From an uncultured delta proteobacterium (GTDB lineage: Bacteria; Myxococcota_A; Polyangia; Fen-1088): a DNA stretch of 64,000 bases. Below the pieces are notes generated by a model. That model did no database searches and was not told the origin of the DNA. It worked only from the letters and a program-made list of their open reading frames with translations. The stretch spans positions 1,104,378 through 1,168,377 of the forward strand of contig CAWAKD010000007.1 in assembly GCA_963782545.1 (NCBI GenBank), given 5' to 3'. The position numbers were made by a program, and so were the translations under genes. This document shows, one piece after another, positions 14,086-53,464 of the stretch. The first letter of the stretch is position 1. Each line of letters opens with the position of its first letter.

Positions 14086-14144
14086 ATTTTAGCAGGCCCG
14101 TGGCGTCAGGATAATTAACCACGGAAATCAAACCGTTCGCTGTT

Positions 14145-14633
14145 CTAGTAGCGAACCTTCCCGGGAACCTCGGCGTAAGCCACGAACGGCGCCTCGGCGT
14201 CCGCGCAAAGCACGTGCTCGCGCACCATCGGCGGTTCGCCACCCGCGGCGTCGAACGCTCGATAGAAAACCGCATCGTCGAAGCCGGCGGAGGCGGCGGA
14301 CTGGCGCGTGGCCGCGTAGTAGACGGCGCGCGGCCGTGCCCACAGGATGGCGCCCAGACACATGGGACAGGGCTCGCAGCTCGCGTAGACATCGCAGCCA
14401 TCGAGCTGAAAGGATCCGAGCGCGGCACACGCGGCGCGGATGACCTGCACTTCGGCGTGCGCGGTCGGGTCGTTGTTGGCCACCACCGCGTTGGCGGCCT
14501 TGGCGATCACGACGCCGTCCTTGACCACCACCGCGCCGAACGGCCCGCCCTGCCCCGTCTGTGCGCCGCGCACGGCCTCGGCGATGGCCAAGCCCAAAAA
14601 ACGCCGTTTGTCGTCCAGCGATGGCACGCTCAC
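14145..14633 (-). CDS. CMP/dCMP-type zinc deaminase (TadA/GuaD-like nucleoside or nucleotide deaminase).
   Basis: C-terminal 162 aa of track ORF 14145..15566. Zinc motifs HAE and PCPMC. The GTG start overlaps the yggS stop as GTGA. Confidence 0.75.
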   Translation of the reverse strand: MSVPSLDDKRRFLGLAIAEAVRGAQTGQGGPFGAVVVKDGVVIAKAANAVVANNDPTAHAEVQVIRAACAALGSFQLDGCDVYASCEPCPMCLGAILWARPRAVYYAATRQSAASAGFDDAVFYRAFDAAGGEPPMVREHVLCADAEAPFVAYAEVPGKVRY

Positions 14634-15355
14634 GTGCGCGCTCCGAAGATCGCGGTGCCCACGCGGATGATGGTCGCGCCCTCGGCGATTGCCACCTCCA
14701 GATCGTGGCTCATGCCCATCGAGAGGTCGGCCAACACCACGTTGGGACGGAGCCGCTCGCGCTGCTCGTCGCGTAGCCGGCGCAGGGCCGCGAAGTGTGG
14801 CCGCGACAGCGCCGGATCTTCGTCGTAGGGGGGAATGACCATCAGACCCGTGCAACGCACGTGCGAATACCGAGCGAAGCTGTCGAGGGTGGCTGCCAGG
14901 TCCGAAGGTGCGATGCCGCTCTTTTGCGCCTCGCCGGCCACGTTGACCTGAACCAGGCAGTCTTGAACCACGTCGAGAGCGGCAGCCTTGCGTTCGATCT
15001 CGGCCAGGACCTCGGGCGAACCGACCGAGTGAACCAGCACCACCTTGCCAGCCACGTACTTGACCTTGTTGCTTTGCAGCGGCCCGATGAAATGCCAGCG
15101 CGGCGACGGCAAGGCCGGCAGGGCGGCGACCAGGCCGGCCACTGCCGCGTGCTTGTCGCGGAACTCCTGCCCATAGCTCTCGGCGAAATCGCGCTGTCCA
15201 GCGGCCAGCGCCGCGACGATGTCCTCGGCGGGAACGGTCTTGCTGACCGCGAGCAGACACAGGGTTTCGGAGGAGCGGCGTATGGCCCGGAGGGCGGCAT
15301 CCACCCTCTTGCGCACCGCGTGCAGATTGACGGCGATCTGCTCGGCTCGGGTCAC
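14630..15355 (-). CDS. yggS: YggS-family PLP-binding homeostasis protein (alanine-racemase fold).
   Basis: C-terminal 241 aa of track ORF 14630..16270 (LLAVSKT...FIGPLQSNK...LSMGMSHD). The GTG start overlaps the maf stop as GTGA. Confidence 0.8.
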   Translation of the reverse strand: MTRAEQIAVNLHAVRKRVDAALRAIRRSSETLCLLAVSKTVPAEDIVAALAAGQRDFAESYGQEFRDKHAAVAGLVAALPALPSPRWHFIGPLQSNKVKYVAGKVVLVHSVGSPEVLAEIERKAAALDVVQDCLVQVNVAGEAQKSGIAPSDLAATLDSFARYSHVRCTGLMVIPPYDEDPALSRPHFAALRRLRDEQRERLRPNVVLADLSMGMSHDLEVAIAEGATIIRVGTAIFGART

Positions 15356-15966
15356 GGCGAAACCCCGAAGGCCGGTGGCGGATAGCCCGGCAAGGCTTCG
15401 AGCGCGCGCAAGTCGGCCAGAACCTCGGCCACCGGAAGGCCGACGACGTTGGTGAACGAGCCGCGCACCTCGGTGACGAAGCTGCCCGCGATGCCTTGGA
15501 TCGCATACGCGCCGGCCTTGCCGCGCCACTCGTCCGAGGCCAGATAGGCCGCGACTTCCGCAGCATCGAGGGAGCGGAAGGTCACGAAGGTGCTCACGAG
15601 CCGCTCGACCGCGCGCGCGCCCAGCCGAATGCGATAGGCGGTCAGCACCTCGTGGCGGCGCCCGGCCAGGCGCTGCAACATCGCTTCGGCCTGCGCCCCG
15701 TCGACGGGCTTGCCGAGGATTTCGTTCTCGATCGAAACGACGGTGTCGGCGGCCAACACCGCCAGCGCGGCGGGGCCGTGGCGAGCGACCGCAGCGTCGC
15801 ACTTCTCGGCGGCCATACGCACGGCGTAGTCGCGCACGGGTTCGCCCTCGCGCGCGGCCTCGTCGATGTCGACCGGCTCGACGGCGAGAACCAGACCCAG
15901 CTTCGCCAGCAACTCGCGCCGCCGCGGCGACGCCGAGGCAAGTATGAGATCGGGGGAACGGCTCAC
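15352..15966 (-). CDS. maf: Maf-family nucleoside triphosphate pyrophosphatase (septum-formation protein Maf).
   Basis: LILASASPRRRELL...GKP...YAIQG motifs. Start placed at the internal GTG (VSRSPDLIL). Using the track's upstream ATG would overlap the divergent radical SAM gene. Confidence 0.8.
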   Translation of the reverse strand: MSRSPDLILASASPRRRELLAKLGLVLAVEPVDIDEAAREGEPVRDYAVRMAAEKCDAAVARHGPAALAVLAADTVVSIENEILGKPVDGAQAEAMLQRLAGRRHEVLTAYRIRLGARAVERLVSTFVTFRSLDAAEVAAYLASDEWRGKAGAYAIQGIAGSFVTEVRGSFTNVVGLPVAEVLADLRALEALPGYPPPAFGVSP

Positions 15967-16118
15967 GATGCGGAGAGTATATCGTCCCGGTGAACGCGGC
16001 ACCAAACTCAGCCCGGTGGCCCGCGATAACTGCAGGCAGGCGAGGTCGTGGTCGTGGTCGTGGTTGGGAACGGGCTCTAGCCCAGTGCCAAACTCCGTGG
16101 CATGAATAGGCGGAAAGG

Positions 16119-17231
16119 ATGACGCCGACACTCGAACGACCCGCGATCCTGCGCTGGCTCTCCGAAACGAACGCCTCGCGGCTCGGCGAGCTGTGGCAGG
16201 AGGCCGACCGCGTGCGCAAGGAGCATGTGGGTGACGAGGTGCACCTGCGCGGTCTCATCGAGATTTCCAATCACTGCCTGCGCCAGTGTCACTACTGCGG
16301 GTTGCGCGCGGGCAATCGCGACATCACGCGATACCGGATGACCGAAGACGAGATCGTAGCCTGCGCGAAGCAGGCCCGAGATCTGGACTACGGGACGGTC
16401 GTGCTACAAGCCGGCGAGGACGAAGAGCTCACTCTCGGCTCCGTCGCTCAGACCATCAGACGCATCAAGGCCGAAACCGCCTTGGCCGTCACCTTGAGTC
16501 TGGGCGAGCGCACGGTCGACGAACTGCGCGCCTGGCGCGAGGCGGGGGCCGATCGCTACTTGCTCCGCTTCGAAACCTCCAACAGCGACTTGTTTTCGCG
16601 CATGCATCCGCCGCGCGGCGGACGGCGGCCGTCGCGCATGAGCCTGATTCGCCAGCTCGGGCCGCTCGGCTACGAGGTGGGAAGCGGCGTCATGATCGGC
16701 ATTCCGGGCCAGAGCTACCAGGATCTGGCCAACGACCTCGATCTGTTCCGCGCGCTGGACCTGGACATGATTGGGGTCGGCCCGTTCATCCCCCACCCCG
16801 CCACGCCGCTTGGCCAAGTCGAGCGCGCAGCTTCCGAGAACCAGGTGCCGGCCAGCGAGCTCATGACCTACAAGATCATGGCCCTCGCGCGCTTGTTGTG
16901 CCCGCGGGCCAACATTCCCAGCACCACCGCCCTGGCCACCCTGAATATCGACCAGGGTCGCGAACTGGGCTTGCAGCGCGGCGCCAACGTCGTCATGCCC
17001 AACCTGACGCCGCCCGCGTACCGGCTTTACTACGAGATCTATCCGGGCAAGGCCTGCGTGCGCGAAACCGCTGACCTATGCAATCGCTGCATTACCGGCC
17101 GGATCGAGAAGCTCGGGCGCGAGATCGGCAAGGGGCCAGGCCCCTCGCCCAATCGGCGCCGCCGTGACCTGGACAAGAGGACGCAGCTCGAAAGGGTCGC
17201 GGCGAGAACACGCGCCCCACGCCGGCCCTGA
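16119..17231 (+). CDS. Radical SAM enzyme of the HydE/BioB/ThiH family, closest in motif spacing to [FeFe]-hydrogenase maturase HydE.
   Basis: IEISNHCLRQCHYCGLRAGNRD (CxxxCxxC), then VVLQAGEDEE...LRFETSN...IGIPGQSYQDLANDL...MIGVGPFIPHP. GGAAAGG RBS. Confidence 0.75.
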   Translation: MTPTLERPAILRWLSETNASRLGELWQEADRVRKEHVGDEVHLRGLIEISNHCLRQCHYCGLRAGNRDITRYRMTEDEIVACAKQARDLDYGTVVLQAGEDEELTLGSVAQTIRRIKAETALAVTLSLGERTVDELRAWREAGADRYLLRFETSNSDLFSRMHPPRGGRRPSRMSLIRQLGPLGYEVGSGVMIGIPGQSYQDLANDLDLFRALDLDMIGVGPFIPHPATPLGQVERAASENQVPASELMTYKIMALARLLCPRANIPSTTALATLNIDQGRELGLQRGANVVMPNLTPPAYRLYYEIYPGKACVRETADLCNRCITGRIEKLGREIGKGPGPSPNRRRRDLDKRTQLERVAARTRAPRRP

Positions 17232-18710: not shown

Positions 18711-19362
18711 CTAGCGCGCGTAAATGATCAGGTCGTGGTAGCGCCCCTCCGAGGTGCCCGGGTTCTCGTAAGCGTGGGCCTCGTCGGCGCGGAAGGAGAT
18801 CGAATCTCCCGGGGCCAGCGCGTAGACCTCGATGCCCACGCGCAGGTTGAGCGTGCCGCTCAGGACCACGACGATTTCGCGGGTTCCGGCGGCATGCGGA
18901 TCCGAGGCATGCGAGGCCCGCGCGGCCAGCCGCAACTCGTAGAGCTCCACCCAGGGATTCGAGCCGGCCGGTGACAGTGGGCGACTCTCCATCTTTCCGT
19001 CGGCCGAACGCAACACCTGGGCCTCGCTCCGGCGAAGCACGGACACCCCGTGTTCTTGCCCACCGATGAGATCGGAGAACGGGAATACCAAGGCCCACCG
19101 CGATCTTCCACAACACGCCGAGCGAAGGATTGCTCTTGTATAGCTCGATCTGCGACAAGGCGGCGCGACTGACCCCTGACGCCACGGCCAGCTCGTCGAG
19201 CGAGAGACCGCGCGCCTTGCGTTTTTCTCGCAGTTGCGTTCCGACTCGCTTGGCCAGGTCGGCGGCACCCACGTCGTCACCAGGCGGGAGCGGGGCCCTG
19301 CGCAAGCTCGCTGCCGGCGCCCGCTTACTTCTTGTCTGGACGGGTGTCTTTTCTTTCTTCAT
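18711..19362 (-). CDS. XRE-family HTH transcriptional regulator with a C-terminal cupin sensor domain. A 1-nt frame break lies between the HTH and the cupin.
   Basis: The HTH (LSLDELAVASGVSRAALSQIELYKSNPSLGVLWKIAVGLGIP) is in track ORF 18622..19362; the cupin (FSDLIGGQEHGVSVL...GDSISFRADEAHAYENPG) is in ORF 18711..19280. Junction at ggt att ccc g ttc. GAGGG RBS. Confidence 0.75.
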
Positions 19363-19614
19363 GTCGCCCTCGTTCCGCGCACCATACCATCAGCCCGCTG
19401 CCGCGACAGGCAGGACACGGGGCATGGCGCCGCGGCGTCCTCCCACAGGGGTGAACGTAGGTGCGGGCGAGTGTTCCCCAGCACGCGAAACCATCAAAAA
19501 GATTGGCGGTCGCCGCCGGAACAGCGATATTGCCCAGAGCCCGCAAGTTGGGTGTTGTTACTTCTGGACTTCATCGCGGGTCCCTCTCACCCTTGTCGAA
19601 ATCAGGAGTACAAA

Positions 19615-20949
19615 ATGCGGTTTGGTGTTGTACCGACTCTACGATGTTCGTCGCCACTTCATTCCTGGCCTGCGTTGCCAACACGCATTTCACCGAGACA
19701 TACCGCTGGGAGTGCGGGCGGCCAGCTCCAGCTTCGGGCGGCACCACCTCTTCCGGCGGTAACACATCCTCCGGCGGTTCCATCTCCTCGGGCGGTTCTT
19801 CGGCCTCGGGCGGCACAAATCCTCCGGGGGCGCCTTGGCCTCGGGCGGCATCACTCGTCCGGCGGTTCTTCGGCTCGGGCGGCACCGCCTCCTCGGGGGG
19901 CGCGTCAGCTTCGGGCGGCACCACATCCTCGGGTGGAGTGACCTGCTCGGGCGGTTCGGGGGGACCACCAGCCATCGTGACCGGCCCCTGCACCGACGTT
20001 CCCCGCCCGATCAATCCAACCATGCGCGGACTGGCTGGCTTGGGGCAACTGCGCAACCAGCTGGTTCGTGGACAACAACTACTGCAACAAGACGTGCGGC
20101 CGCTGCGGCGGCGGTGGCGTGACCGGTTCCGGCGGCGTGACCAGTTCCGGCGGTTCGTCGGCACGCGGCGGTTCGGGAGGGGCAGCGGGCTCGGGCGGGA
20201 GAACTTCCTCGGGCGGGGTGACCGGCTCGGGCGGTTCCGCCGGCAGTGGCGGTAGCACCAGCCCGGGAGGCACCAATCCACAGTTCACGGGCACGAATGG
20301 CTGGGCAAGCCGCTATTGGGACTGCTGCAAGCCTTCGTGTGGATGGACGGCCAATTCCAATCCTCCAGTTCCGAGCTGCGCCAAGGACGGGACGGGCCGA
20401 GTCGGCGTAGACAGCAAGAACGGCTGCGAGGGCGGGGGGTCGGCCTTCGAATGCTACGACTTTTCGCCCTGGTACGATGCGAGCACCAATATGTCGTACG
20501 GTTTCGCGGCCTACAATGGGGTCGCCTGCGGCACCTGTTTCATGCTGCAATTCACGGGCAGCAGCAACTCCGGCCCCAACGACGGCGCCGCCGCGATCAA
20601 AGGCCAGCAGATGGTCGTGCAAGTCATCAATATCGGCGGCATCCAGGCCAACCAGTTCGACCTCCTGATCCCAGGTGGCGGCGTAGGCGCCATGAATGGT
20701 TGCGCGACCCAGTGGGGGTCGTCGACCGACCTCGGCGTGCAGTACGGCGGCCTGCTTTCGGAATGCGGCGGCGACCCTGCCTGCATGAAGGGCAAGTGCT
20801 CCTCGGTTTTCGGCAATGTTTCGTCGGTGTTCAAGGCCGGCTGCGACTGGTTCACGGGTTGGTTCAGCTCGGCCGACAATCCCAATCTGGTCTACAAGCA
20901 GGTATCGTGCCCCTCGCAGCTCACCTCGAAGACCGGCCTCTCGAAGTAG
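19615..20949 (+). CDS. Glycoside hydrolase family 45 endoglucanase with an N-terminal signal, Gly/Ser/Thr linkers and a small Cys/Trp-rich CBM10-like module. Several frame disruptions in the linker-coding repeats.
   Basis: The catalytic domain in ORF 20068..20949 matches GH45 hallmarks (SRYWDCCKPSCGW; QMVVQVINIGG..QFDLLIPGGGVG; ADNPNLVYKQVSCP), including both catalytic Asp contexts. CADWLAWGNCATSWFVDNNYCNKTCGRCG resembles CBM10. A strong AGGAG RBS precedes the ATG at 19615. Confidence 0.75.
19730..19985 (+). repeat. Degenerate tandem DNA repeats (ggcggYwcYtcYtcSggc units) encoding SGG(T/S)(T/S)SSGG linkers.
   Basis: Visible periodicity. The correct linker reading switches frame three times within about 50 nt (around 19830, 19855 and 19876). 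Confidence 0.6.
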
Positions 20950-21165: not shown

Positions 21166-23149
21166 ATGCGGTCCTTTCCACCTTTGCTGCTCGTCGCGGT
21201 TTCGGGTTCCCTATTCATGGTCGCGTGTGTGTCGGCCAACATCATTCAGACGGGCCCCACGGGTGGAGGGGGCGATGAGGCCGATGCAAACACCATCCAT
21301 CTCGATGCGCCATCGACAACTTTCAAGCTCGATGGGAGCACTTTGTCGCGCGCCGGATCTGACGCTCCTCCCGGACCGAATTGCGGCAACGGCGAGCGGA
21401 CCAGCGACGAGGCCTGCGACGACGGCAATACGGTATCGGGCGACGGCTGCGCCAACAACTGCCTCAGCGTCGAGCCGGGTTTTTCGTGCGTCCCCCCAGG
21501 AAAGCCCTGCCGCCCGGTGGCTCGCTGCGGTGATGGCTTGGTGGTGTTCCCCGAACAGTGTGACGACGGCAACCTTGCAGCCGGCGACGGCTGTTCGGCC
21601 GGCTGCAAGGTCGAGATCGGCTGGAAGTGCGATGGCAACCCCAGCACCTGCTCGCACACCACATGCGGCGACCACACGATCGAAGGCGCCGAGGGCTGCG
21701 ACGACGGCAACAGCATGCCCTTCGACGGCTGCTCGGCCGATTGCCAAAACGAGCCCTCCTGCAAAGGCAGCGGCGCCTGCACCTCGCGATGTGGTGACGG
21801 CATCGTGCTAAACGAGGAATGCGACGACGGCAACAACACCGACGGCGACGGTTGCTCGCACGACTGCAAGATCGAGTCTGGTTTCAAGTGTTCGCAACCC
21901 GATATCGGCGACAAGATGATGGTGCCGGCCGTGTACCGCGACTTCAACTACCACAACCCGACCGACTTCGAGGCCGGGGTCACCGGTTCGAAGACCCCCA
22001 CCACGGGCCTGGTCAAGAGCGACCTCGATGCCAACGGCAAGCCGGTGTACACCGGGGTCACCGGCAACGCTGTTCACATCGAAAGCGCAGCCTCGCTCGC
22101 CAAGTGGTACACCAACGTCGACGGAGTGAACCACGCGACCACGGGCAAGCTGACCCTGTGGGACAACGGCAAGGGCGGCTACGTGAATCGGTACAAGGAG
22201 GACGGAACCCAATACTTCAACACCGAGCCGGCCTACTACTGCGGAAACGTCGGTTCGGAGAAGACCGACGCCAACGGAGACCCGATCCCGTGCACCTCCA
22301 TGTACGCGACGGCCACCAATTGCGACGAAATGGCCGCCAAGGGCGAGGAGATGCTGCCGGGGAGCTGCATCTCCACCAACGGTTCGTACAGCGCCAAGTT
22401 CATCGTTTCGAAGATGGATGGCAACCCTTGCTTCTTCCCCGTCGACAACGACAACTTCTCGAAGGACAGGAATTACGCCGCAGATTCCTCCCTACTACGA
22501 CGCCTCGAAGTCGTGGCCGAAACAGGTCGACGACGCCGGGAACGTGATCATGCACAACTTCAGCTTCACCAGCGAGGTGCGCTACTGGTTCAAGTTCGAC
22601 AAGAGCAAGACCTACACCCTCGACTTTACCGGCGACGACGATGTCTGGGTGTTCATCAACGGCAAGCTCGCAGTCGACCTGGGCGGCATCCACTCGCCGG
22701 TCAGCGGCAGCATCGTGATCGGCTCGAACGGCAACGGTACCACCACGGTGACCTCGTACGATGACCAGGGCGTCGCCACCACCCCGACCACGTCGACCGC
22801 CGACCTCGGCTTGCAGGACGGCAAGGTTTACGAGGCCGCCGTCTTTCAAGCCGAGCGCCAGACCACCGGCTCGTCCTACAAGTTGACACTGAGCGGCTTC
22901 AATGCCGCACCCAGCGACTGCCACCCCGATTGCGGCGACGGCGTTCTGGAGATCGGCGAAGAGTGCGACGATGGTCCGGACAATGGCAAGGGTGGCTACG
23001 GCAGCTGTGGTGCAGACTGCACCTTGCAGGCCGGCTTCTGCGGCGACAACGTGGTCCAGGAGGGCGAGGACTGCGACGAAGGCGCCCTGAACGGCACCGG
23101 CGCCGACCACTGCCCGTCCGGTTGCCACTACCTCATCCCGATTCTCTGA
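21166..23149 (+). CDS. Second Cys-rich-repeat + fibro-slime domain secreted protein, a paralog of the gene at 24..2022. A +1 frame change falls inside the fibro-slime domain near 22470-22495.
   Basis: ORF 21166..22764 (signal MRSFPPLLLVAVSGSLFMVACVSA, four CGDG..CDDGN repeats, start of fibro-slime YRDFNYHNPTDFEAG) continues in ORF 22418..23149 (HNFSFTSEVRYWFKFD..GDDDVWVFINGKLAVDLGG, then C-terminal repeats). Confidence 0.8.
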
Positions 23150-23207: not shown

Positions 23208-24473
23208 ATGCTCGACATTCGACTCGTCCGTGAAAAACCCGATGAGGTCCGCGCAGGGCTGCGCAAGCTGGCCGCGGACGTGGACCTCGACGCCCTGCAT
23301 CGCCCTCGACGAGGGCGTGCGCAAGCTCAAGAACGATTCCCAGGCCATCCAGGCCGACCAGAATCGCCTGTCCAAGGAAATCGCCAAGGCGCCCAGCCCC
23401 GAAGCGCGTGCGGAGATCAAGGCCAAGGGCGCCGCACTCAAGGAAAGGAACGAGCAGCTGCTCAAGGATCTGGCCGCGCAGGAGGCCGCTCTCGACGAGA
23501 AGTTGCTGGAGTTGCCCAACCTGCCCCACCCGTCGGTGCCCGTGGGCAAGGATGAAAGCGAAAACCGCATCGTGCGCGAGGAAGGCGCGAAGCGCGCCTT
23601 CGCCTTCACCCCGAGGCCCACTGGGATCTGGGTCCGCGCTGGGGCATCATCGACTTCGACCGCGGGGTCAAGATCTCGGGCAGCCGCTTCTACGTGCTCA
23701 AGGATTGGGGCGCCCGCCTGCAACGCGCGCTGATCTCGTTCATGCTCGACCTGCACACCCGCAAGCACGGCTACACCGAGGTCCTGCCGCCCTACATGGT
23801 TCGACGCGAGTGCCTGGTGGGCACGGGCAATCTGCCCAAGTTCGGCGACAATCTGTACCACGACGCCAGCGAGGATTTCTGGTTCATCCCCACCGCCGAG
23901 GTGCCCGTCACCAACCTCTACCGCGATGAGGTTCTCGACGGCGCACGGCTCCCCATCAAGCACGTGGCCTTCACCGCGTGCTTCCGCCGCGAGCAGATGG
24001 CCGCCGGCCGCGACACCCGCGGCATCAAGCGCGGCCACCAGTTCGACAAGGTCGAGCTGGTCAAATTCGTCAGGCCGGAAAACTCCATGGACGAGCTCGC
24101 TGGGCTGCTCTCCGACGCGGAGGATGTCCTCAAAGCGCTGGAGCTCCCCTACCGCGTGGTCGAGATGTGCACCGGCGACCTTTCCTTTTCGGCTATGGTC
24201 AAGTTCGACCTCGAGTTGTGGGCGCCCGGCTGCGGCGAATGGCTCGAAGTCAGCTCGTGCTCGAACTTCGGCGACTTCCAGGCTCGTCGCGCGAAGATCC
24301 GTTTCAAGGATGGCAAGGAGAAGAACCGTTTCGTCCACACCCTCAACGGCTCCGCTTTGGCCTTGCCAAGAACCCTGATTGGTGTTCTCGAAACCTACCA
24401 GCGGGCGGATGGAAAGCTAGACGTCCCCCTGGCGCTTCGACCATACTTCGATGGTATCGACGTGCTCGGGTAG
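23208..24473 (+). CDS. serS: Seryl-tRNA synthetase. The reading frame is broken twice (about 23300 and 23618) and restored.
   Basis: N-terminus MLDIRLVREKPDEVRAGLRKLAADVDLDAL (frame 0); coiled-coil arm IALDEGVRKLKND...AFAFTPRP (frame 1, track ORF 22930..23733); catalytic core HWDLGPRWGIIDFDRGVKISGSRFYVLKDWGARL...FRREQ... (frame 0, ORF 23694..24473). Confidence 0.85.
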
Positions 24474-37896: not shown

Positions 37897-38463
37897 ATGC
37901 TGTCCAGGGTCCTGCACGAGTTGCAATCCGATCCCGCGAAGTGGGAACGATGCAAGGGATTCTTCAAGGTGTTGAAGATTCCAGCGAAGACCTCCCTGCT
38001 TCGTGAAGGCGAGGTCGCCCGCTCCATGTATTTCGTGAAGGAGGGATGTTTGCGCCTTTGGTTCAACAAGGACGGCAAAGACGTGACGTTCCAGTTCTTC
38101 TTGGAAAACCAAGGGGTTTCCTCCATGGAGAGCTTCCTGGGCGGTGGACCGAGCCTGTTTTCCTTGGAAAGCATCGAGCCGACGACGGTGGCGGCGATCG
38201 GTCGCCAGGACTGGGACCGACTTCACGAGGTCTACCCGAATCTGCGCGACTTGTTCCAGCAGATCGTCCTCAAGCGGATGGAGAACTACGGTCGGCTCTT
38301 CCTATCCCGGATCAAGGACAGCCCGCGCGAGCGCTACGAGGATTTGCTGCGCGAGTACCCCGAGATCGTTCGAAGAATTCCCCAGCACTTCATCGCGTCC
38401 TACCTGGGCATCACGCCCGTTTCGCTGAGCCGCATCCGAAATCGCATCCACAAGAAGCGCTGA
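37897..38463 (+). CDS. Crp/Fnr-family transcriptional regulator (cNMP-binding domain plus C-terminal HTH).
   Basis: Effector-domain beta roll (GEVARSMYFVKEGCLRLWF) and C-terminal HTH FIASYLGITPVSLSRIRNRI. Confidence 0.85.
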   Translation: MLSRVLHELQSDPAKWERCKGFFKVLKIPAKTSLLREGEVARSMYFVKEGCLRLWFNKDGKDVTFQFFLENQGVSSMESFLGGGPSLFSLESIEPTTVAAIGRQDWDRLHEVYPNLRDLFQQIVLKRMENYGRLFLSRIKDSPRERYEDLLREYPEIVRRIPQHFIASYLGITPVSLSRIRNRIHKKR

Positions 38464-38496
38464 CGGCGATTTCTTATCAAAGGTTATCGTCGCTGG

Positions 38497-38763
38497 ATGG
38501 GCCCCGGCGTTATTGGTGGATCCATGGCTCCGCTCTTCTCCAACCGCCGTCTGCCCGGAACGCGCTTCGTGGAATTCGACTCGCACAAGTGCCAGGCCTG
38601 TTGGTCTTGTGTCGACGCCTGTCCGAACCACGTGATCGGGAAGGTGTCGGTGCTGTGGCACAAGCATGCGGCGCTCCGCAAAGGCGAGGACTGCGTCGGG
38701 TGTTTCAAGTGCGTCGCGGCCTGCCGGGCAGGCGCCTTGCAACGGCGGACCGTGGCGCCATGA
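38497..38763 (+). CDS. 4Fe-4S dicluster ferredoxin-like protein.
   Basis: Two Cys clusters: CQACWSCVDACP and CVGCFKCVAAC. Confidence 0.7.
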   Translation: MGPGVIGGSMAPLFSNRRLPGTRFVEFDSHKCQACWSCVDACPNHVIGKVSVLWHKHAALRKGEDCVGCFKCVAACRAGALQRRTVAP

Positions 38764-39242
38764 GGCCGGCGTCCCTGCGAGGCTCGATCAACGTTGGTCT
38801 GCTGATCGCCGGCACGGCGTCGTTGGTGTCGGGCTTTCTTATCCAGGCGACCTACCACATGGGTCACGGAGTTTGGGCCGGCCGCACCGTGTGGGGCTGG
38901 GGCCGTCCGACCTGGGCACTGTTCCACCAGATTTCCTCGGCAGCGTTGCTGGCCTTCGCCGCGTGGCACCTGAACTTGAACCGCAAGCCGTTGCTCGCAA
39001 CCCTTCGACGCAGCGATGCGTGGCGAAGCCTTGGCCCGGTCCTATTCGGGACTTTTGCAGCCGCGGTCACCACCGCGCTGGTTGCATGGGCCGCCGCCGT
39101 AGGCTTCGACCACCACCTCGCGGAGCGAGCCATGGTGGAAATCCACGACAAGATCGTGATCCCGATGTCCGTCCTTCTTGCGCTGCATGTTTGGCAGAGG
39201 CGTTCCCGGTTACTGCCGCGCTCGCGCCCAATTGGACGATAG
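38760..39242 (+). CDS. DUF4405-like integral membrane protein (4 TM), ATGA-coupled to the upstream ferredoxin.
   Basis: Internal Met MRPASLRG of ORF 38046..39242. Four hydrophobic helices with conserved His. Confidence 0.55.
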   Translation: MRPASLRGSINVGLLIAGTASLVSGFLIQATYHMGHGVWAGRTVWGWGRPTWALFHQISSAALLAFAAWHLNLNRKPLLATLRRSDAWRSLGPVLFGTFAAAVTTALVAWAAAVGFDHHLAERAMVEIHDKIVIPMSVLLALHVWQRRSRLLPRSRPIGR

Positions 39243-39370
39243 CGTGTGGTCCGGCTACGCCTCGACCAGCATCACCAGGGTCTCGGCCAGCACTCCATCG
39301 TGCGCCATGGCCTCGGCAGCACCTGGCGTCGGGAAAAGAACGGCCTTCGGATCTGCGACGGTCACGCCCG

Positions 39371-40456
39371 TCAGTAGCGCTCGCTGTCGTCCTTGGGCGA
39401 CATCGGCCAGGCCTGGGTGGCACGTCCGTTGATGGTGGTTCCGCCGAACACGATGGGGGCACCGTTGGCAATGAAGTCGGCCGGGAAGCTCAGGGTCGGC
39501 TTCGACAGGGCGTCCAGCTTCGCGACGTGGGCGGCTTCGAGACGGACGTCAAGCCCGGCCAGATTGTCTTCCAGTTGCGCAAGCGTCCGCGCCCCGATGA
39601 TGGTCGAGGCGACACCCGGACGCGCCTGTACCCACGCCAGCGCCACCCGCGCCACCGTGGTGCCCAAGGCCTTGGCAATTCTGGCCATCTCTTCAAGAAG
39701 GTCGTACGCCTTGTCGTTGAGAGCGCTCAGTGCCCAGGGGCCGCGGCCGGCGTCGTGCTGACCGTGTTTGTCGCGCGTGTACTTTCCCGACAGCACGCCG
39801 CTCTTCAAGGGCGACCACGGGGTCACGCCGAGGCCCAGCTCGAGGGCCATCGGAATCAGCTCGCCTTCCACCGTGCGTTCGAGCAGCGAATACTCGATTT
39901 GCAGTGCGATCAGGGGCGCCCAGCCGCGAAAGCGGGCGATGGTTTGTGCCTCGGCACATTTCCAGGCCGGCGTATCCGAGAAGCCGATGTAGCGAACCTT
40001 GCCTTCCCGGACCAGGTCGTCGAGGGCGCGCAGGGTTTCTTCGATGGGCGTGGTGGCGTCCCAGGCGTGCATCCAATAGAGGTCGATATACGGCGTCTGC
40101 AACCGTCGCAAGGACTGCTCGCACGCCGAAACAATCGCCTTGCGGTGCGAGCCGCCGCCGTTGGGATCGCCACGGTAAAGGTTGCTGAGGAATTTCGTTG
40201 CCAAAACCACGCGGTCGCGTTTGCTCGGGTGCCGGCCGATGTGGTCCCCGATGATCTTCTCCGAATGGCCCTTGGTGTAGGCGTTGGCGGTGTCGATGAA
40301 GTTGCCACCCCGTTCGAGAAAGCGATCGATGATGGCCTGCGAGTCGGCCACCGAGGAGCCCCAGCCCCAGTCTTCCCCGAAGGTCATCGCGCCAAGACAC
40401 ATGGGCGAAACACGCAAGCCGGATCTTCCAAGTGTCACGTAGTTGTCGAGTGGCAT
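39371..40456 (-). CDS. Aldo/keto reductase.
   Basis: LGAMTFGEDWG..., IDTANAYTKGHSE, and a standard AKR catalytic tetrad context. Confidence 0.9.
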   Translation of the reverse strand: MPLDNYVTLGRSGLRVSPMCLGAMTFGEDWGWGSSVADSQAIIDRFLERGGNFIDTANAYTKGHSEKIIGDHIGRHPSKRDRVVLATKFLSNLYRGDPNGGGSHRKAIVSACEQSLRRLQTPYIDLYWMHAWDATTPIEETLRALDDLVREGKVRYIGFSDTPAWKCAEAQTIARFRGWAPLIALQIEYSLLERTVEGELIPMALELGLGVTPWSPLKSGVLSGKYTRDKHGQHDAGRGPWALSALNDKAYDLLEEMARIAKALGTTVARVALAWVQARPGVASTIIGARTLAQLEDNLAGLDVRLEAAHVAKLDALSKPTLSFPADFIANGAPIVFGGTTINGRATQAWPMSPKDDSERY

Positions 40457-40676
40457 GTTCCCTGCCTTTCACGCGGGATCTACCCAATCGCTCCGGGGCG
40501 TGCCAGCAACAAAGTAGTTGATAAATTGGCAAATCCCGTCAAGCGGCGGCTTTCGTCACTGCTCTGTCCGGGTTCCCAATCCCATGCCGGCGCCAATGTG
40601 ATGAATCGCACGGTCGGTACGCCCTCCTCGGGGCGTGCGACTTGATGAAAAATCCGTATTGCACGAAGCTCGTATC

Positions 40677-47523: not shown

Positions 47524-47814
47524 GTCGCAGCATCTACGGCGTGGCGACTCCTGTCGGCTGCGCCGGTGCCCAAGCCACCACTCCAAGGCCGCCGTGGCGG
47601 TGAAGATGGCCATGGGCTATGCCCAGGCTCTCCCTCGGGCCGCCCCCGAGCCGAAGCCACAGTGATCTTGGCCAGATTCTGCGCGTGGTGAAATCTAGAC
47701 ACCTTCACCAGTCACGCCCAGCGACGCCTCCCGTGGACTGCGCTGTTCGGGGCCATCGTCCACTTCGGACGGGCTGACAGCAAGCTGGCCATCCTTTTGC
47801 ATGAGTCGCCGGCC

Positions 47815-48999
47815 ATGAAGATCGCCATCGTCACCGAGTACTACTACCCGACCTTGGGAGGAATTCAGGAACACGTTCATCATTTCGCCCGCACTGCACG
47901 CAAGCTGGGCCACGACGTGCGCATCATCGCGCCGGCAGTCGAAGACGGTCTGGCTTCCACGCGCCGTCGCGGCCCTGCGGCGAATGAACGCTCGATTGAC
48001 GAGCAGAACGGTGTCATCCGCATCGGAAGCTCCATTCCACTCTTGTCCGGCGGCTCGATCGCCCGCGTGTCGGTTGGAACCGCCCTGTCGCGGAAGATCG
48101 TCGATGTCTTGCGAGCCGAGCGATTCGATGTCTTGCACACGCATTCACCGCTGATGCCCACCTTGCCGCTGCTCGCGTTGCGCGCGTCCGATTGCGCGAA
48201 CGTGGGGACTTTTCACAGCGATTTCGAGCGCAACATCCTCTACTTTGCCCTCGCCCATTTCTTACAGCCGTACGTGGACCGCCTCGACGCCGCGATTGGT
48301 GTGTCGGAAACCGCACTGCGCGGATTGCGCCACTATTTCAAGGCTCGCTGGCGCGTGATCCCCAATGGCGTCGACGTGTCGATGTTCAGCTCGGGGCAAA
48401 GGCGACCAGAGTTCGACGACGGTCGGCTCAGCGTGCTTCACCTCGGCCGCTTCGACCCGCGCAACGGCGTGGACCGCGTGATCAAGGCATGGGTCGCCGT
48501 GCGCAGGTCCGGCACGGACGCGCGTTTGATCCTGGTCGGTGATGGGCCCTTGCGGCCCACGTACGAATCGATGGTTCCGTCGGATCTCCGCGCCGACGCA
48601 CATTTCGTCGGCTTTGTCGAAAGCGACGAACGTCCATCGTACTACGCTTCCGGCGATGTGTTGCTTTGTCCGGCGGTTGGCGGAACCTTCGGCATCATCG
48701 TGGTCGAGGCGATGGCGGCAGGTTGCGCCGTGGTCGCGGCGGACACGCCTGGGTTTCGCAACGTCATGGAAGACGGCGTGCAGGGGTTCATGGTCGACGT
48801 CGCCGCCGACCCGACCTGCGTGCAACTTGCAGAGCGCACCCGACAATTGCTGGACGATGCCCGCTTGCGCCAGCGTTGTGCCGAAGCCGGCCGTAGGGCC
48901 GCAGCGCGATTCGATTGGCCAGCGGTCGCCGATCAGGTTTTGCGCGTCTACGGCGAAATTCTTGGCGGAACGGAGATCGCAAGTTGCGCGAACCGATGA
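47815..48999 (+). CDS. Glycosyltransferase family 4 (PimA-like).
   Basis: MKIAIVTEYYYPTLGGIQEHV...; C-terminal EX7E region (FVESDERPSYYASGDVLLCPAVGGTFGIIVVEAMAAG). Confidence 0.85.
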   Translation: MKIAIVTEYYYPTLGGIQEHVHHFARTARKLGHDVRIIAPAVEDGLASTRRRGPAANERSIDEQNGVIRIGSSIPLLSGGSIARVSVGTALSRKIVDVLRAERFDVLHTHSPLMPTLPLLALRASDCANVGTFHSDFERNILYFALAHFLQPYVDRLDAAIGVSETALRGLRHYFKARWRVIPNGVDVSMFSSGQRRPEFDDGRLSVLHLGRFDPRNGVDRVIKAWVAVRRSGTDARLILVGDGPLRPTYESMVPSDLRADAHFVGFVESDERPSYYASGDVLLCPAVGGTFGIIVVEAMAAGCAVVAADTPGFRNVMEDGVQGFMVDVAADPTCVQLAERTRQLLDDARLRQRCAEAGRRAAARFDWPAVADQVLRVYGEILGGTEIASCANR

Positions 49000-50555
49000 G
49001 AGTCAGCGCGTCTGCCGCAGGTATCTGGCGCTCCCGAGCGTGGGTCATCGCCATTGTCTGCTGCGGGCTCCGTGCCGTCTCGCTCGTGCGGGTCTGCCTT
49101 TCGGACGACGAGGCCATCTACGCCGTTGTCGCCCGGGAAATGCTGGCAGGCCGGACCCTGTATCGCGATGTCGTCGATCACAAGCCGCCCCTCATCTACT
49201 TGGTCTACGCCTTCACCCAAGCCGTCGCCGGATTTCGCGGCGGAATGCTGCTCTTGCATCTGCTGGCCATCGCCGCGGTCTTTGCCACAGCGCTGGTGCT
49301 CCGGCGCATCGTTCATGAATTTGCCGGCCTGCCAGCCGACTCGCGCGCGCCATTTTGGGCAGCTCTTCTTTATGCGGTCTTCACAACCACGCTTCTGCCC
49401 TTCGATGCCTTGGCGGCAAATTGCGAATTGTTCATGATGCTGCCGCTTTCCGCATCCGTGCTGTTCTTCCTGCGCGGCGCCGGCAATCTGCGCACGCGCC
49501 CACTTCTTGCCACCGGCGCGCTGGTCGGTATTGCCGCCCTTTTCAAGTACCAGGCTGGCGTGCAGCTGGCCCTCTATGGGGCAAGCCTGACCGCCGCACA
49601 CTGCCGACGGATATCTCGGGTCCTGCTGGCGGGTGCAGCCATTGGCGTCGGCGTGGCTGCGGTGTTCGGGATTGCGCTCGCCCTCATGCAGTCCGCCGGG
49701 AGCCTCGACGCCGCATGGTTCTGGTTTCGCTTCAACTTCAGCTACATCAAGACCGGCTTCCATCCCATGGACACGGTCAAACGAGCGACGATCCGCATTT
49801 CCTTCGTGTCCGGCGCGGCGGCCTTTCTGTGGATTCTCGCAACGGCAGCGGCATTCAAGTCGATCAGGGCAAAGCCGGAGCAAAGCGGCGTCGGCTTCAT
49901 TCGTGTTGTCTCCCTTTGGGCCCTTGTCAGCGCGTTGGCCATCACCACCGGCGGTCGCTTCTTCGGTCACTATTTCCACCAAATCACCGCACCCCTGGCC
50001 GTGCTGGCGGCGCCCGCTGCCGCGCGGCTCTGGCGAGCCCGCCGGCGCCTCGTGATGACCGCGGTGGGGGGGCCGGCGGCCGCGTTCCTCCTGCTGGGCA
50101 TCTTCGATGTCCCGGTATTCGCCGCCGTGGGCGAGCCAGTGCCCGACTACCGGCGCATGGCCGACCTTGTCGAGGCAAACGCGCGGCCGGGCGACGGGCT
50201 GGTCGTGTGGGGCAACTTGCCGGTTCTCTACTTCCTGGCCGAGCACCCGCTTGGCACGCGATTCGTCTTTTCGAATTACATGACCGGACTTTCACCAGCC
50301 ACGCCATCGCAATCGGATCCCTCGGTCGATGCCTCCCCCAACATCGTCCCAGAGAGTTGGGCCATGTTCGAGGCGGATATCGCCAAGCGAAGGCCGCGTA
50401 TTCTCGTCGATACGTCGCCTGGCAATGTGGCGGCGTACGGTAAGTTTCCACCGTCGAGTTTTCCACGCTTGCAAGCCCTTCTCGACCGCGCCTATCGGCC
50501 CGTGGGCGAGACCGCCGGCGTTCGCGTCTTCGTCCGCCGAGAAGGGGCCGACTGA
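48996..50555 (+). CDS. ArnT/PMT-like (GT39/GT83-type) polytopic membrane glycosyltransferase.
   Basis: ATGA overlap with the GT4 gene. DEAIYAVVAREMLAGRTLYRDVVDHKPPLIY loop motif; about 11 TM helices. Confidence 0.8.
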   Translation: MRVSASAAGIWRSRAWVIAIVCCGLRAVSLVRVCLSDDEAIYAVVAREMLAGRTLYRDVVDHKPPLIYLVYAFTQAVAGFRGGMLLLHLLAIAAVFATALVLRRIVHEFAGLPADSRAPFWAALLYAVFTTTLLPFDALAANCELFMMLPLSASVLFFLRGAGNLRTRPLLATGALVGIAALFKYQAGVQLALYGASLTAAHCRRISRVLLAGAAIGVGVAAVFGIALALMQSAGSLDAAWFWFRFNFSYIKTGFHPMDTVKRATIRISFVSGAAAFLWILATAAAFKSIRAKPEQSGVGFIRVVSLWALVSALAITTGGRFFGHYFHQITAPLAVLAAPAAARLWRARRRLVMTAVGGPAAAFLLLGIFDVPVFAAVGEPVPDYRRMADLVEANARPGDGLVVWGNLPVLYFLAEHPLGTRFVFSNYMTGLSPATPSQSDPSVDASPNIVPESWAMFEADIAKRRPRILVDTSPGNVAAYGKFPPSSFPRLQALLDRAYRPVGETAGVRVFVRREGAD

Positions 50556-53158
50556 TGGGCTTGGGTGCGACGGCGGCGGCGAACGGCGACACCGACGGTG
50601 GCCAAGCCTTGCCGAGTCGCCTTCATGGCTACGTCGACTTTCTCGCACGCCGCAGTCTGCCGATTTCGATCGGCGCGCTGGTTCTGTTCGTGCTCGGCGT
50701 TGCAGCGGCTTCCCGCCTGCAGTTGAGGTCGGACTTCACGGAGTTGCTTCCCGAGGACGATCCGGAAGTCGCACGATTGAAAGACCTGGGCGACAAGATC
50801 GGCACGCCCTCGACGCTGGTCGTGGCCGTCGAGGGACCCGATCCGACCTCGAACGAGAGCTTTGCCGAAGCGCTGGTCGAGAACCTGCGCCCGCTGATCG
50901 GCACGGATCTGCGGGCGATCGACTACCGCGCAGACGCCAGCCGTCCGTTTTTCGAGCGCAACCAGGCGCTCTACGCGAATTTGCGAGACCTGCAACGTAT
51001 CGACGACGACGTCAAGAAGCTGATCGTTTCCAAGAAGAATCCGATGTTTCTGCCCTTCGCCGATCCCGACAAGGGCGAGGTGGACGACGACCCGGCCACG
51101 GATCTGCGCAGGCTTAGGCAGCAGCTGGAAACGCAGAAACCCAGAGGCGCCTTTCCATCCGGCTACTACGAAACCTCGGACCGGCGTCTGCTCGCCATCA
51201 TCACCTGGACGGTTTCGTCCGGGACCGGCGATTGGTCCGGCTTTCGCATCCGCGACGACGTGCAGCGGGTCATCGAGCAGACACATACGGCGTCTTTCGG
51301 CGACGTCAAGGCAAGCATCACCGGCGATGTCGCTACCGCCATCGAAGAGCACGACGCGCTCAAGTCCGACATCGCGTGGGTCTCCATCGTGTGCACGGTG
51401 CTGGTCTTGCTGGTGATCATGCTGTATTTCCGCAGCATCATCGCCCTTGGTTACGTTTTCTTTCCCACTCTGCTCGGGGTGGCCGTCGCGTTCGGCATCA
51501 CCGCCTTGACGATCGGCTACCTCAACACCAACACCGCCTTCCTTGGCTCGATCATCATCGGCAACGGCATCAATTTCGGCATCATTCTGCTTGCCCGCTA
51601 TCGCGAGGAACGACAGGGCGCCCCGACCGATCCGCCGACCAGTGCGATGACCAAGGCCATCGCGGCGACCGTTCGCCCGACGCTCGCCGCCGCGCTGGCC
51701 GCTGGCATCGCCTACGCCAGCCTGACCTTGACCGGTTTCCGCGGATTTCGCCAATTCGGGTTCGTCGGCGGAACGGGCATGGTCCTCTGTTGGCTGGCGA
51801 CGTACAGCTATTTTCCGGCCCTGGTCTTCTTCTGGGAGAGACTGCGCAGAAACCCCGCACCCAAACCCCAGTCTTCCCACCGTCGGCTGGTTGCCGTCGC
51901 GAATTCCCTGCTGAGGCATCGACGCATGCTGATTGGACTCGTAGCTGCCGTCAGCCTCCTTGCGGCGTGTGTCGTGGCGCCATTGCTGTCGAACCCGTTC
52001 GAATATGACTTCTCCAAACTACGCAACCAGCACAGTCGCAAGCACGGCGCGGGCGAGCTGTACGCACGGGTTGGCAAGATCTTTCCGCAGGACATTTCGC
52101 CGGTCGGCGTCGCGCTCTTGGCGTCGCCCGAAGATGCGGCCCTTTACGCCCAAGCCGTCCTCGAAAAGGACTGTAGGGACGGCCTTTCGCGTGCCCATTC
52201 GAGCGTTGCAGCGAGCGCCGCGACCCTGGCCCGGGAATGTGCGCGGCGAGTCGCCGCCGGGGAGCCCACCGGAGGTCTGCTTTCCAAGGTGTCGACGGCG
52301 TTCGACTATCTGCCCAAAGACCAAGACGTCAAGCTCACGCTGATAGCCGACATCCGCAGGCGCCTGAGTGACCGAGCCCTACAGACCGTATCGGAGGCAG
52401 ATCGCAGACTCGTCGCAGATTGGATGCCTGCCGCCAATCTTCACCGGCTGACACCGGCCGATCTGCCGGAGGCGATTGCGCGGCGATTCCGCGAGTTCGA
52501 CGGCACCGTCGGTCGGGTGGCCCTGCTCTTTCCCGTTCGCGTGTGGGCGAATTGGGATGGGCACAACTTGATCCGTCTTGCGGACGTGACCAAGGACGTT
52601 GTCCTGCCCAGCGGCCACGTCGCATCAGCCGCGGGGCACACCTCGCTGTTCGCGGCCATGCTCCGCTCGATTGCGCACGACGGCCCCATCGCGACCGTGG
52701 CAGCCATGATCGGCGTCGCCATCATGGTGCTGCTGCTCTTCCGCAACCTGCGCAGCACGGCGATGGTGCTCTTGTCGCTGGGCGTGGGTGTGTTGTGGAT
52801 GGGGGGAGCGGGCGTGCTCCTGCACATGAAGCTCAATTTTCTCAATTTCGTGGCGTTGCCGATCACCTTCGGTATCGGCGTCGATTATGCGGTCAACATT
52901 TTCGCACGCATGGCCAGTGAGCCGCCGGAACGGCGCGCGCATGCGCTTGCGGAAACCGGGAGCGCGGTCGCGCTTTGTTCCTCGACCACCATCATCGGCT
53001 ACAGCTCACTCCTCATCGCATCCAATGGTGCACTGGTTTCCTTCGGCAAACTTGCGAATCTGGGCGAGGTCGGCTGCCTACTTGTTGCGCTCCTGCTGGT
53101 GCCCTCGGTCTCCAGACGCCACCGTGCCAAGCGGGCCATGCAGGCAACCCCGGTCTGA
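50555..53158 (+). CDS. MMPL/RND-superfamily lipid exporter (HpnN-like).
   Basis: 867 aa with two 6-TM bundles and two periplasmic domains; start overlaps the upstream stop (TGATG). Confidence 0.8.
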   Translation: MGLGATAAANGDTDGGQALPSRLHGYVDFLARRSLPISIGALVLFVLGVAAASRLQLRSDFTELLPEDDPEVARLKDLGDKIGTPSTLVVAVEGPDPTSNESFAEALVENLRPLIGTDLRAIDYRADASRPFFERNQALYANLRDLQRIDDDVKKLIVSKKNPMFLPFADPDKGEVDDDPATDLRRLRQQLETQKPRGAFPSGYYETSDRRLLAIITWTVSSGTGDWSGFRIRDDVQRVIEQTHTASFGDVKASITGDVATAIEEHDALKSDIAWVSIVCTVLVLLVIMLYFRSIIALGYVFFPTLLGVAVAFGITALTIGYLNTNTAFLGSIIIGNGINFGIILLARYREERQGAPTDPPTSAMTKAIAATVRPTLAAALAAGIAYASLTLTGFRGFRQFGFVGGTGMVLCWLATYSYFPALVFFWERLRRNPAPKPQSSHRRLVAVANSLLRHRRMLIGLVAAVSLLAACVVAPLLSNPFEYDFSKLRNQHSRKHGAGELYARVGKIFPQDISPVGVALLASPEDAALYAQAVLEKDCRDGLSRAHSSVAASAATLARECARRVAAGEPTGGLLSKVSTAFDYLPKDQDVKLTLIADIRRRLSDRALQTVSEADRRLVADWMPAANLHRLTPADLPEAIARRFREFDGTVGRVALLFPVRVWANWDGHNLIRLADVTKDVVLPSGHVASAAGHTSLFAAMLRSIAHDGPIATVAAMIGVAIMVLLLFRNLRSTAMVLLSLGVGVLWMGGAGVLLHMKLNFLNFVALPITFGIGVDYAVNIFARMASEPPERRAHALAETGSAVALCSSTTIIGYSSLLIASNGALVSFGKLANLGEVGCLLVALLLVPSVSRRHRAKRAMQATPV

Positions 53159-53464
53159 ATTCGGGCGGATGTGCCGCTGTCCGAAACCTGACACCGGTTG
53201 ACGGCGCTCAACACGATCTGACATCCGCGCCGCATGTTTGCGGCGACTCGATGGCTGGCCGCTCGATTGCATTCGAGCTTCGACCATGGACCGCATAGCT
53301 ACTGCCACCAAGAAAGCCTGGGCCATGGTGACGCTCCTCGCGTCAACCCTGCTGTCTTACGCGAAGATCGTCGGTGTCGTTGTTTCCGAACGGCTCTGGC
53401 GAATTCCGCAGCGCCACCTTCGCACGGCAGGAGATTTCGCACGCAGCGCTGGCAGGAGGATGTC

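Follow-up and report, generated by a model that had tools for sequence, protein, structure and literature searches.

A probable surface-tethered family 45 endoglucanase with an ShK-like module in an uncultured Polyangia bacterium, its gene likely interrupted by assembly errors

Does the interrupted gene at positions 19615–20949 of a 64,000-nucleotide stretch of contig CAWAKD010000007.1, from an uncultured bacterium of the Polyangia, encode a working secreted cellulase, and if so, of what design? The family in question, glycoside hydrolase family 45 (GH45), is usually treated as a family of fungal or animal cellulases that is nearly absent from bacteria. The initial annotation of the stretch, which is referred to here at its full length as the window, described one intact GH45 endoglucanase gene with a signal, Gly/Ser/Thr linkers and a Cys-rich module resembling carbohydrate-binding module (CBM) family 10, set in a locus for the attack on cellulose. 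The picture obtained here is partly different. The gene very probably encodes a modular endo-beta-1,4-glucanase of the GH45 subfamily A type that is tethered to the cell surface, and the disruption of its reading frame in the deposited sequence would be an error of assembly. Its Cys-rich module resembles the ShK domains of animal toxins in the spacing of its cysteines. A search of the literature on ShK domains with glycoside hydrolases, expansins, mannanases or myxobacteria found no description of an architecture that joins a lipoprotein signal, an ShK-like module and a GH45 domain.

The identity of the enzyme is carried by its catalytic domain. The domain scores 139.7 bits (E = 1.6e-40) with the Pfam family PF02015, whose cut-off is 27, over profile positions 2–212 of 214, and phmmer searches of the PDB return the springtail enzyme 5H4U, Melanocarpus Cel45A and Humicola endoglucanase V (EGV) with E values of 1e-35 to 1e-37. 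In EGV the catalytic pair consists of Asp10, the base, in the motif YWDCC, and Asp121, the acid, in FDL. Both residues are present in the window and align in the phmmer matches with their counterparts in 1L8F and 5H4U; the two columns (D114 and D227 of the 322-residue query) are invariant in 32 diverse homologues. The three GH45 motifs quoted in the initial annotation, SRYWDCCKPSCGW, QFDLLIPGGGVG and ADNPNLVYKQVSCP, appear verbatim when the window is translated in the frame that the ATG at 19615 sets, and its claim of a GH45 domain with both catalytic Asp residues is borne out. An AlphaFold model of the protein, built on the alignment of the 32 homologues, has a predicted local distance difference test score (pLDDT) of about 90 across the GH45 domain and disordered linkers. 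Foldseek matches this model to ten subfamily A GH45 structures at E values of about 1e-22, with template modelling (TM) scores of 0.82–0.85 and root-mean-square deviations of 2.2–2.6 Å, among them 4ENG (E = 6.5e-23, TM 0.84); the subfamily B structures 1WC2 and 5XBU are matched at E values of about 1e-2 only. Judged by homology, the gene would be a genuine subfamily A endoglucanase.

The comparison set of subfamily A enzymes comprises Humicola insolens EGV (2ENG/4ENG), Melanocarpus albomyces Cel45A (1L8F), Neurospora crassa Cel45A (6MVI) and the springtail enzyme of Cryptopygus antarcticus (5H4U). With these fungal and springtail proteins the domain shares the Asp pair in YWDCCKPSC and FDLxIPGGGVG, 14 cysteines, the fold (the six-stranded double-psi beta-barrel of EGV type), and 47–50% identity to the PDB GH45 structures over aligned columns. 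It differs from them in its origin in Polyangia, in its position as the C-terminal domain on a lipoprotein stalk, and in the ShK-like module that takes the place of the fungal CBM1.

The stretch taken in the initial annotation as a single intact gene is not one open reading frame (ORF). The ATG frame is interrupted by two TGA codons, and its N-terminus, MRFGVVPTLRCSSPLHSWPAL..., is no signal peptide; a hydrophobic segment, MFVATSFLAC, sits in a neighbouring frame. The sole uninterrupted ORF starts at a GTG that falls within the Cys module (20068–20949, 293 amino acids), and the deposited annotation (P0001) gives this same signal-less fragment. An intact orthologue of 452 amino acids and 82% identity (P0002) is encoded in the syntenic locus L001, and a frameshift-aware alignment of this protein with the DNA of the window requires shifts at ~19639 and ~20010. 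DNA alignment with L001 and a further orthologous locus, L003, places single-nucleotide gaps in the window at ~19639, in the signal peptide, and at ~20003 and ~20020, both in the Cys module, and probably further ones in the repetitive linker 1. Relative to the intact orthologues, the gene carries at least three frame-breaking single-nucleotide deletions. Ordinary tblastn of an orthologue ran on across the frameshifts, as the linkers have low complexity in each of the frames, and was replaced for the mapping of indels by the frameshift-aware dynamic-programming alignment and the DNA alignment. Together the deletions amount to a multiple of three, which keeps the ATG in frame with the catalytic domain and explains why a single gene was seen at first. 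The linker repeat itself appears to carry a compact signature of single-nucleotide deletions in a coding tandem repeat: at 19734–19954, Tandem Repeats Finder (TRF) reports periods of 35/70 rather than 36/72, not multiples of three, beside the underlying 18-nucleotide unit. A scan for promoters and terminators gave nothing above background.

The genes around the GH45 gene are broken in the same manner. The seryl-tRNA synthetase gene serS (23208–24473) has two frameshifts, at ~23298 and ~23614, against the intact copy in L001. The gene of a fibro-slime protein is shifted at ~22480 and one further gene at ~25134; a regulator gene with XRE and cupin domains has one or two frameshifts, at ~19083 and possibly 19196. 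All three are intact in L001. In total, at least eight indels fall within ~13 kb, or about one frameshift per 1–2 kb against intact syntenic orthologues. The 217-residue catalytic domain is without defect and more than 80% identical to its orthologue. The disruption of the GH45 gene is with high confidence attributed to assembly error and not to decay, since the essential serS is broken twice, indels are frequent across the region, and the strongly conserved catalytic domain shows no flaw. The length of the contig (1.87 Mb), the pattern of indels and the closest orthologues, which lie in MFD long-read metagenome-assembled genomes (MAGs), point to an error-prone assembly, probably itself a long-read MAG. 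Indels in long-read MAGs can make a good secreted enzyme look truncated and signal-less in public annotation.

With the frame repaired, the gene encodes a protein of 445 amino acids and has the same domain order as its intact orthologues (Table 1). Full-length members of the family have 430–490 amino acids and consist of a lipobox-bearing signal, a G/S/T-rich linker of ~100 residues, the ShK-like module, a linker of ~60 residues and the GH45 domain. The modular layout proposed in the initial annotation, with G/S/T-rich linkers and a Cys/Trp-rich module between them, is seen both in the reconstruction and in the intact orthologues. The N-termini of the orthologues read MRFGAVPT...AGFLAC, AGFVAC or similar, with the lipobox present; in the window the lipobox was called as a pattern match ([LVI..][ASTVI..][GAS]C) after correction of the frame at ~19639. 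Linker 2 is predicted to be disordered, with pLDDT below 50 at model residues 42–91. Such a protein would be exported by the Sec pathway through its lipoprotein signal peptide and then acylated at the lipobox Cys, with the outer membrane or the cell surface as its most likely final location. The flexible first linker, the 40-residue six-Cys module and the second linker would hold the catalytic domain away from the cell. There it may cleave beta-1,4-glucan by the inverting mechanism of GH45, the Asp of YWDCC serving as the presumed base and the Asp of QFDLL as the acid.

Table 1. Features of the GH45 gene and of the genes on either side, in window coordinates
Feature	Position	Strand	Basis or remark
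Shine-Dalgarno-like AGGAG	19604..19608	+	6 nt 5' of the ATG; read from sequence; stretch conserved in orthologous loci L001 and L003
Lipoprotein-type signal peptide	19615..19673	+	reconstructed MRFGVVPT(x)TMFVATSFLAC; lipobox Cys codon 19671-19673; broken by 1-nt deletion at ~19639
Linker 1, ~100 aa, G/S/T/A-rich	19674..19988	+	18-nt (SGGTTS-like) repeat; TRF period 18; frame uncertain in places
In-frame TGA stops in ATG frame	19939..19941 and 19978..19980	+	translation
ShK-like six-Cys module	19989..20106	+	reconstructed CTDVPPPDQS(N/K)PCADWLAWGNCATSWFVDNNYCNKTCGRC; broken by 1-nt deletions at ~20003 and ~20020
Linker 2, ~63 aa	20107..20298	+	43% Gly, 22% Ser, 13% Thr
GH45 catalytic domain, subfamily A type	20299..20937	+	Pfam PF02015, PDB matches, Foldseek, invariant Asp columns
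Catalytic Asp codons	20320-20322 (YWDCC), 20659-20661 (QFDLL)	+	alignment to GH45 structures
TAG stop codon	20947..20949	+	read from sequence
Divergent XRE-HTH/cupin regulator	18711..19362	-	Pfam Cupin_2 and AraC_binding; orthologue HTH_3 and Cupin_2; frameshift at ~19083
Protein with Cys-rich acidic repeats (DUF4215/TIGR02232) and PA14/fibro-slime domain (TIGR02148)	21166..23149	+	frameshift at ~22480

The Cys module of the window is complete once its two deletions are repaired, and is then exactly as long as that of the nearest orthologues. Its cysteines follow the spacing C-x-D...C...C...C-x3-C-x2-C, and in an alignment of 45 distinct modules of the family (alignment A1) the positions C3, D5, C15, C24, C35, C39 and C42 are invariant. 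Thirty of these 45 modules match the Pfam ShK family PF01549 at E ≤ 0.01, the best at 2.7e-7. A profile of the 45 modules, searched against the PDB, matches OspTx2a (4.2e-5), OspTx2b (6.4e-5), the Brugia ShK domain 2MCR (1.8e-4) and the ShTK protein 7L2G (3.5e-3); its matches are ShK-fold chains only, and no CBM10 chain is found at E ≤ 1. The Pfam family of CBM10 (CBM_10, PF02013) has no match at E ≤ 10 in two reconstructions of the window module and none in the 45 family modules, and CBM_2 (CBM2a) likewise has no Pfam match even at E ≤ 10. CBM10 modules have four cysteines that form two disulfides. An AlphaFold model of the module, made with an orthologue's copy (44 residues, 93% identical to the closest relative), has a pLDDT of 87.5 and two short helices. 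By its cysteine spacing and profile matches, the module is ShK-like and not CBM10-like, and the earlier CBM10 label does not survive.

ShK or ShKT domains (PF01549) occur elsewhere in potassium channel toxins of sea anemones, in nematode astacins, MMP23 and CRISPs, and in plant and algal prolyl hydroxylases; the disulfides of the ShK fold join C1–C6, C2–C4 and C3–C5. The present module shares with them the six-Cys spacing, a conserved Asp after the first Cys and the TCGxC end, and its profile matches OspTx2a/b, BmK1 and the ShTK protein. It differs from them in being bacterial and fused to a glycoside hydrolase, in the Pro-rich stretch after the first Cys (C-T-D-x-P-P-P) and in its W/Y-rich helices. 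Nothing in the data suggests the toxin role of ShK domains for this module.

The company that the module keeps bears on its function. Within 81 GH45 loci and the window, the module profile matches GH45 genes only (in 36 loci and in the window). An exhaustive hidden Markov model search of 1.84 billion representative sequences found the module in 909 proteins at E ≤ 1e-3; a word-indexed search of a 5.8-billion-sequence database gave no match at the same threshold because the profile, with its 42 positions, is too short for it. Among the top 135 carriers, most of the accompanying Pfam domains belong to enzymes of beta-1,4-glycans: the double-psi beta-barrel (DPBB) domain DPBB_1 in seven proteins, GH5 in six, GH26 in four, Expansin_C in three, and GH6, GH7, GH134 and polysaccharide deacetylase in one each. 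Repeated fusion to domains active on beta-1,4-glycans is the behaviour of CBMs. For this reason we infer, at somewhat less than even probability, that the module most likely serves as a small, disulfide-stabilised, CBM-like module that targets the enzyme to its substrate. More doubtful, if still possible, is the broader proposal that modules of the form C-T-D-x-P-P-P...C-x-x-W...C...W-F...Y-C-x-x-T-C-G-R-C make up an unrecognised CBM family, common to Polyangia and to green algae or other protists, and repeatedly fused to GH45, GH5, GH26, GH6, GH7, GH134 and expansin DPBB domains. If true, the module would equip a large clade of bacterial GH45 cellulases, tethered to the surface and so far overlooked, and a fold of the ShK toxin type on wall-degrading enzymes of bacteria and algae would offer an inexpensive test case for a CBM family not yet described.

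A possible parallel is found in volvocine algae, whose GH9 cellulases carry putative novel Cys-rich CBMs (Guerriero et al. 2018, PMC6032398). These modules, which sit on P/S-rich linkers, resemble the present one in being small, Cys-rich and outside the CBM families of CAZy, a likeness drawn from their description only. Multiple copies of the present module occur as well: three are found in P0163, an expansin-like protein from Parachlorella kessleri, a green alga, and several bacterial lipoprotein-like proteins (P0234, P0278, P0290, P0175 and P0183) bear two or three copies on GH26, GH5, trypsin-like peptidase and transglutaminase-like domains.

Several observations weigh against the reading given above, and each has to be set beside the alternative that it favours. 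The indels were judged from the assembled sequence, and several of them lie outside long homopolymers. If the signal peptide and the Cys module were truly frameshifted, the gene would be a genuine pseudogene and the organism would no longer make a secreted GH45 enzyme. Such decay would agree with the two in-frame stops and the frame-breaking deletions of the deposited sequence, and with a public annotation limited to the signal-less fragment. We regard it as improbable, given that the essential serS is shifted twice within the window and three further neighbours are also broken, that the catalytic domain is free of defects and strongly conserved, that intact orthologues exist in at least 12 syntenic loci, and that the deletions total a multiple of three. 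With assembly error preferred on these grounds, the repaired gene could still encode a protein without hydrolytic activity, akin to expansins or swollenins. The DPBB fold is common to GH45 and the first domain of expansins, and the active site of the family departs from that of EGV in two respects: Gln replaces the EGV His (NQFD and not NHFD, window 20644–20661; invariant in the bacterial GH45 clade), and an active-site loop is one residue shorter and has no equivalent of EGV Asp114. These changes may give the enzyme kinetics or a specificity different from those of EGV. A non-hydrolytic protein nevertheless appears very unlikely, as the catalytic Asp pair is invariant, identity to active subfamily A enzymes reaches 47–50%, and the structural match to expansins is insignificant (E = 0.17–0.7 in the Foldseek search, against 1e-22 for EGV). 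An expansin-like DPBB protein lacking the Asp pair, which the initial annotation had itself named as the outcome that would overturn its proposal, is excluded by the same observations.

An active glucanase being the preferred reading, its accessory module and its substrate are left to be weighed. The initial annotation took as its model Cel45A of Cellvibrio japonicus, which has the architecture CBM2a-CBM10-GH45. The parallel extends to general logic: both are bacterial GH45 enzymes in which the catalytic domain lies at the C-terminus behind one or more small accessory modules and low-complexity linkers, and a small disulfide module with Ser/Gly-rich linkers does precede GH45 here. Unlike Cel45A, the present protein has a lipoprotein-type signal, linkers rich in G/S/T and not poly-Ser, and an ShK-like module. 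A Cel45A-like enzyme with a cellulose-binding CBM10 module is hardly credible, in view of the missing CBM_10 and CBM_2 matches, the ShK-fold chains that alone answer the module profile in the PDB, and six invariant cysteines in ShK spacing against the four of CBM10. The ShK-like assignment has weaknesses of its own. The window's copy scores 16.4 bits against PF01549, below the gathering threshold of 20.9, and Foldseek finds only weak matches to the 44-residue model, the best being the hookworm protein Acan1 (6DRI; E = 1.2, TM 0.58–0.63). As to function, the module need not bind carbohydrate, because the top 135 carriers also include proteins with fasciclin (five), transglutaminase-like (two), trypsin-like peptidase, CAP and other domains, and because most module carriers have no Pfam catalytic domain; the conserved aromatic residues of the module are, moreover, typical core residues of ShK domains generally.

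It is conceivable, if on the whole unlikely, that the enzyme is active and that its natural substrate is not plant cellulose: walls of oomycete or algal prey, glucomannan or xyloglucan could be attacked instead, with the module targeting such walls or having a non-carbohydrate role in protein stabilisation or protein–protein contact. Myxobacteria are predators. The module type is common to green-algal expansin-like proteins, bacterial mannanases and peptidases, and the GH45 gene lies outside any cellulolytic gene cluster. A passage of PMC12093494 cites reports of predation on oomycetes by means of carbohydrate-active enzymes (CAZymes), and one in PMC13084967 cites Busch 2019 for the cleavage of xyloglucan by tested animal GH45 enzymes. 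Against a different substrate stands cellulose as the canonical substrate of subfamily A GH45.

The gene does not stand alone among bacteria. We confirmed 320 GH45-encoding loci among GTDB species representatives, and a protein search gave more than 1,166 clusters. Of the 320 loci, the best 80 lie almost all in MAGs whose label is Polyangiaceae, Polyangia, Myxococcales or delta-proteobacterium; two GH45 copies occur in several genomes. Among RefSeq bacteria, 31 of 16,401 carry GH45 (PMC13084967). Rare as it is among cultured bacteria, the family is common in the uncultured Polyangia lineage, so that the statement in the initial annotation that GH45 is rare in bacteria stands for cultured genomes and fails for this lineage. 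A large GH45 clade in uncultured Polyangia of soil and peat bears on who degrades soil cellulose and on the debate over transfer of GH45 between kingdoms. One locus in the best 80 (L077, CAWEYP010000020.1) comes from a MAG labelled 'uncultured Chloroflexia bacterium', the sole label there that is not of the Myxococcota type; this could be a matter of binning or labelling, or a transfer.

The order metY-like gene, XRE-cupin regulator, GH45, fibro-slime protein and serS is kept in ~12 loci, in which the flanking housekeeping genes are 84–97% identical; in L001 the neighbours are the metY-like gene, the regulator, the fibro-slime gene, serS and the gene of HU. The conserved order and the identity of the flanks fit vertical inheritance in a core chromosomal region. 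Recent horizontal transfer was considered and rejected: the GC content of the gene equals that of its flanks, and the gene is syntenic where the flanking metY-like and serS genes show this identity. An ancient transfer of GH45 between kingdoms may still have taken place. Both genes named by the initial annotation as neighbours are present, the divergent regulator upstream, with its XRE-HTH and cupin domains, and the fibro-slime gene downstream (Table 1). Their proposed roles fare less well. The regulator had been called dedicated; it is absent from L005 and L007 while GH45 is retained, as it also is in L018, from which the fibro-slime gene is absent. Neither the 21-kb syntenic locus nor the large window ORFs covered by the scan (those for Lon, ClpB, a histidine kinase, MMPL and an ABC transporter) yielded a further CAZyme. 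With the metY-like gene and serS on its flanks, the GH45 gene lies among housekeeping genes and apparently not in a cellulose-utilisation cluster, and the idea of a locus for the attack on cellulose is not upheld.

A paralogue of the downstream protein with DUF4215 repeats and a PA14 domain is encoded near the start of the window (24–2007), with 48–53% identity in tblastn at 414–989 and 1291–1902, in two frames. Further overlapping long ORFs, on the same strand in different frames, occur at 12634–16270 on the minus strand and at 38046–40645 and 47797–55376 on the plus strand; examples are 38046..39242 with 38666..40645, and 47797..48999 with 48915..50555 and 50555..53158. Such overlapping pairs and triples are the pattern expected if frameshift errors have split single genes. 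Indel-prone assembly appears to affect the window throughout, and its frames have to be repaired before anything is concluded from its ORFs. The reference locus is not free of similar signs: the XRE-cupin gene of L001 (9061–9624, minus strand), as called, begins with ~27 residues that are not conserved elsewhere (coverage 0.86 from residue 28) and that disagree with the HTH-containing N-terminus of the window copy. The L001 MAG probably carries a frameshift of its own, or a mis-called start, in this gene.

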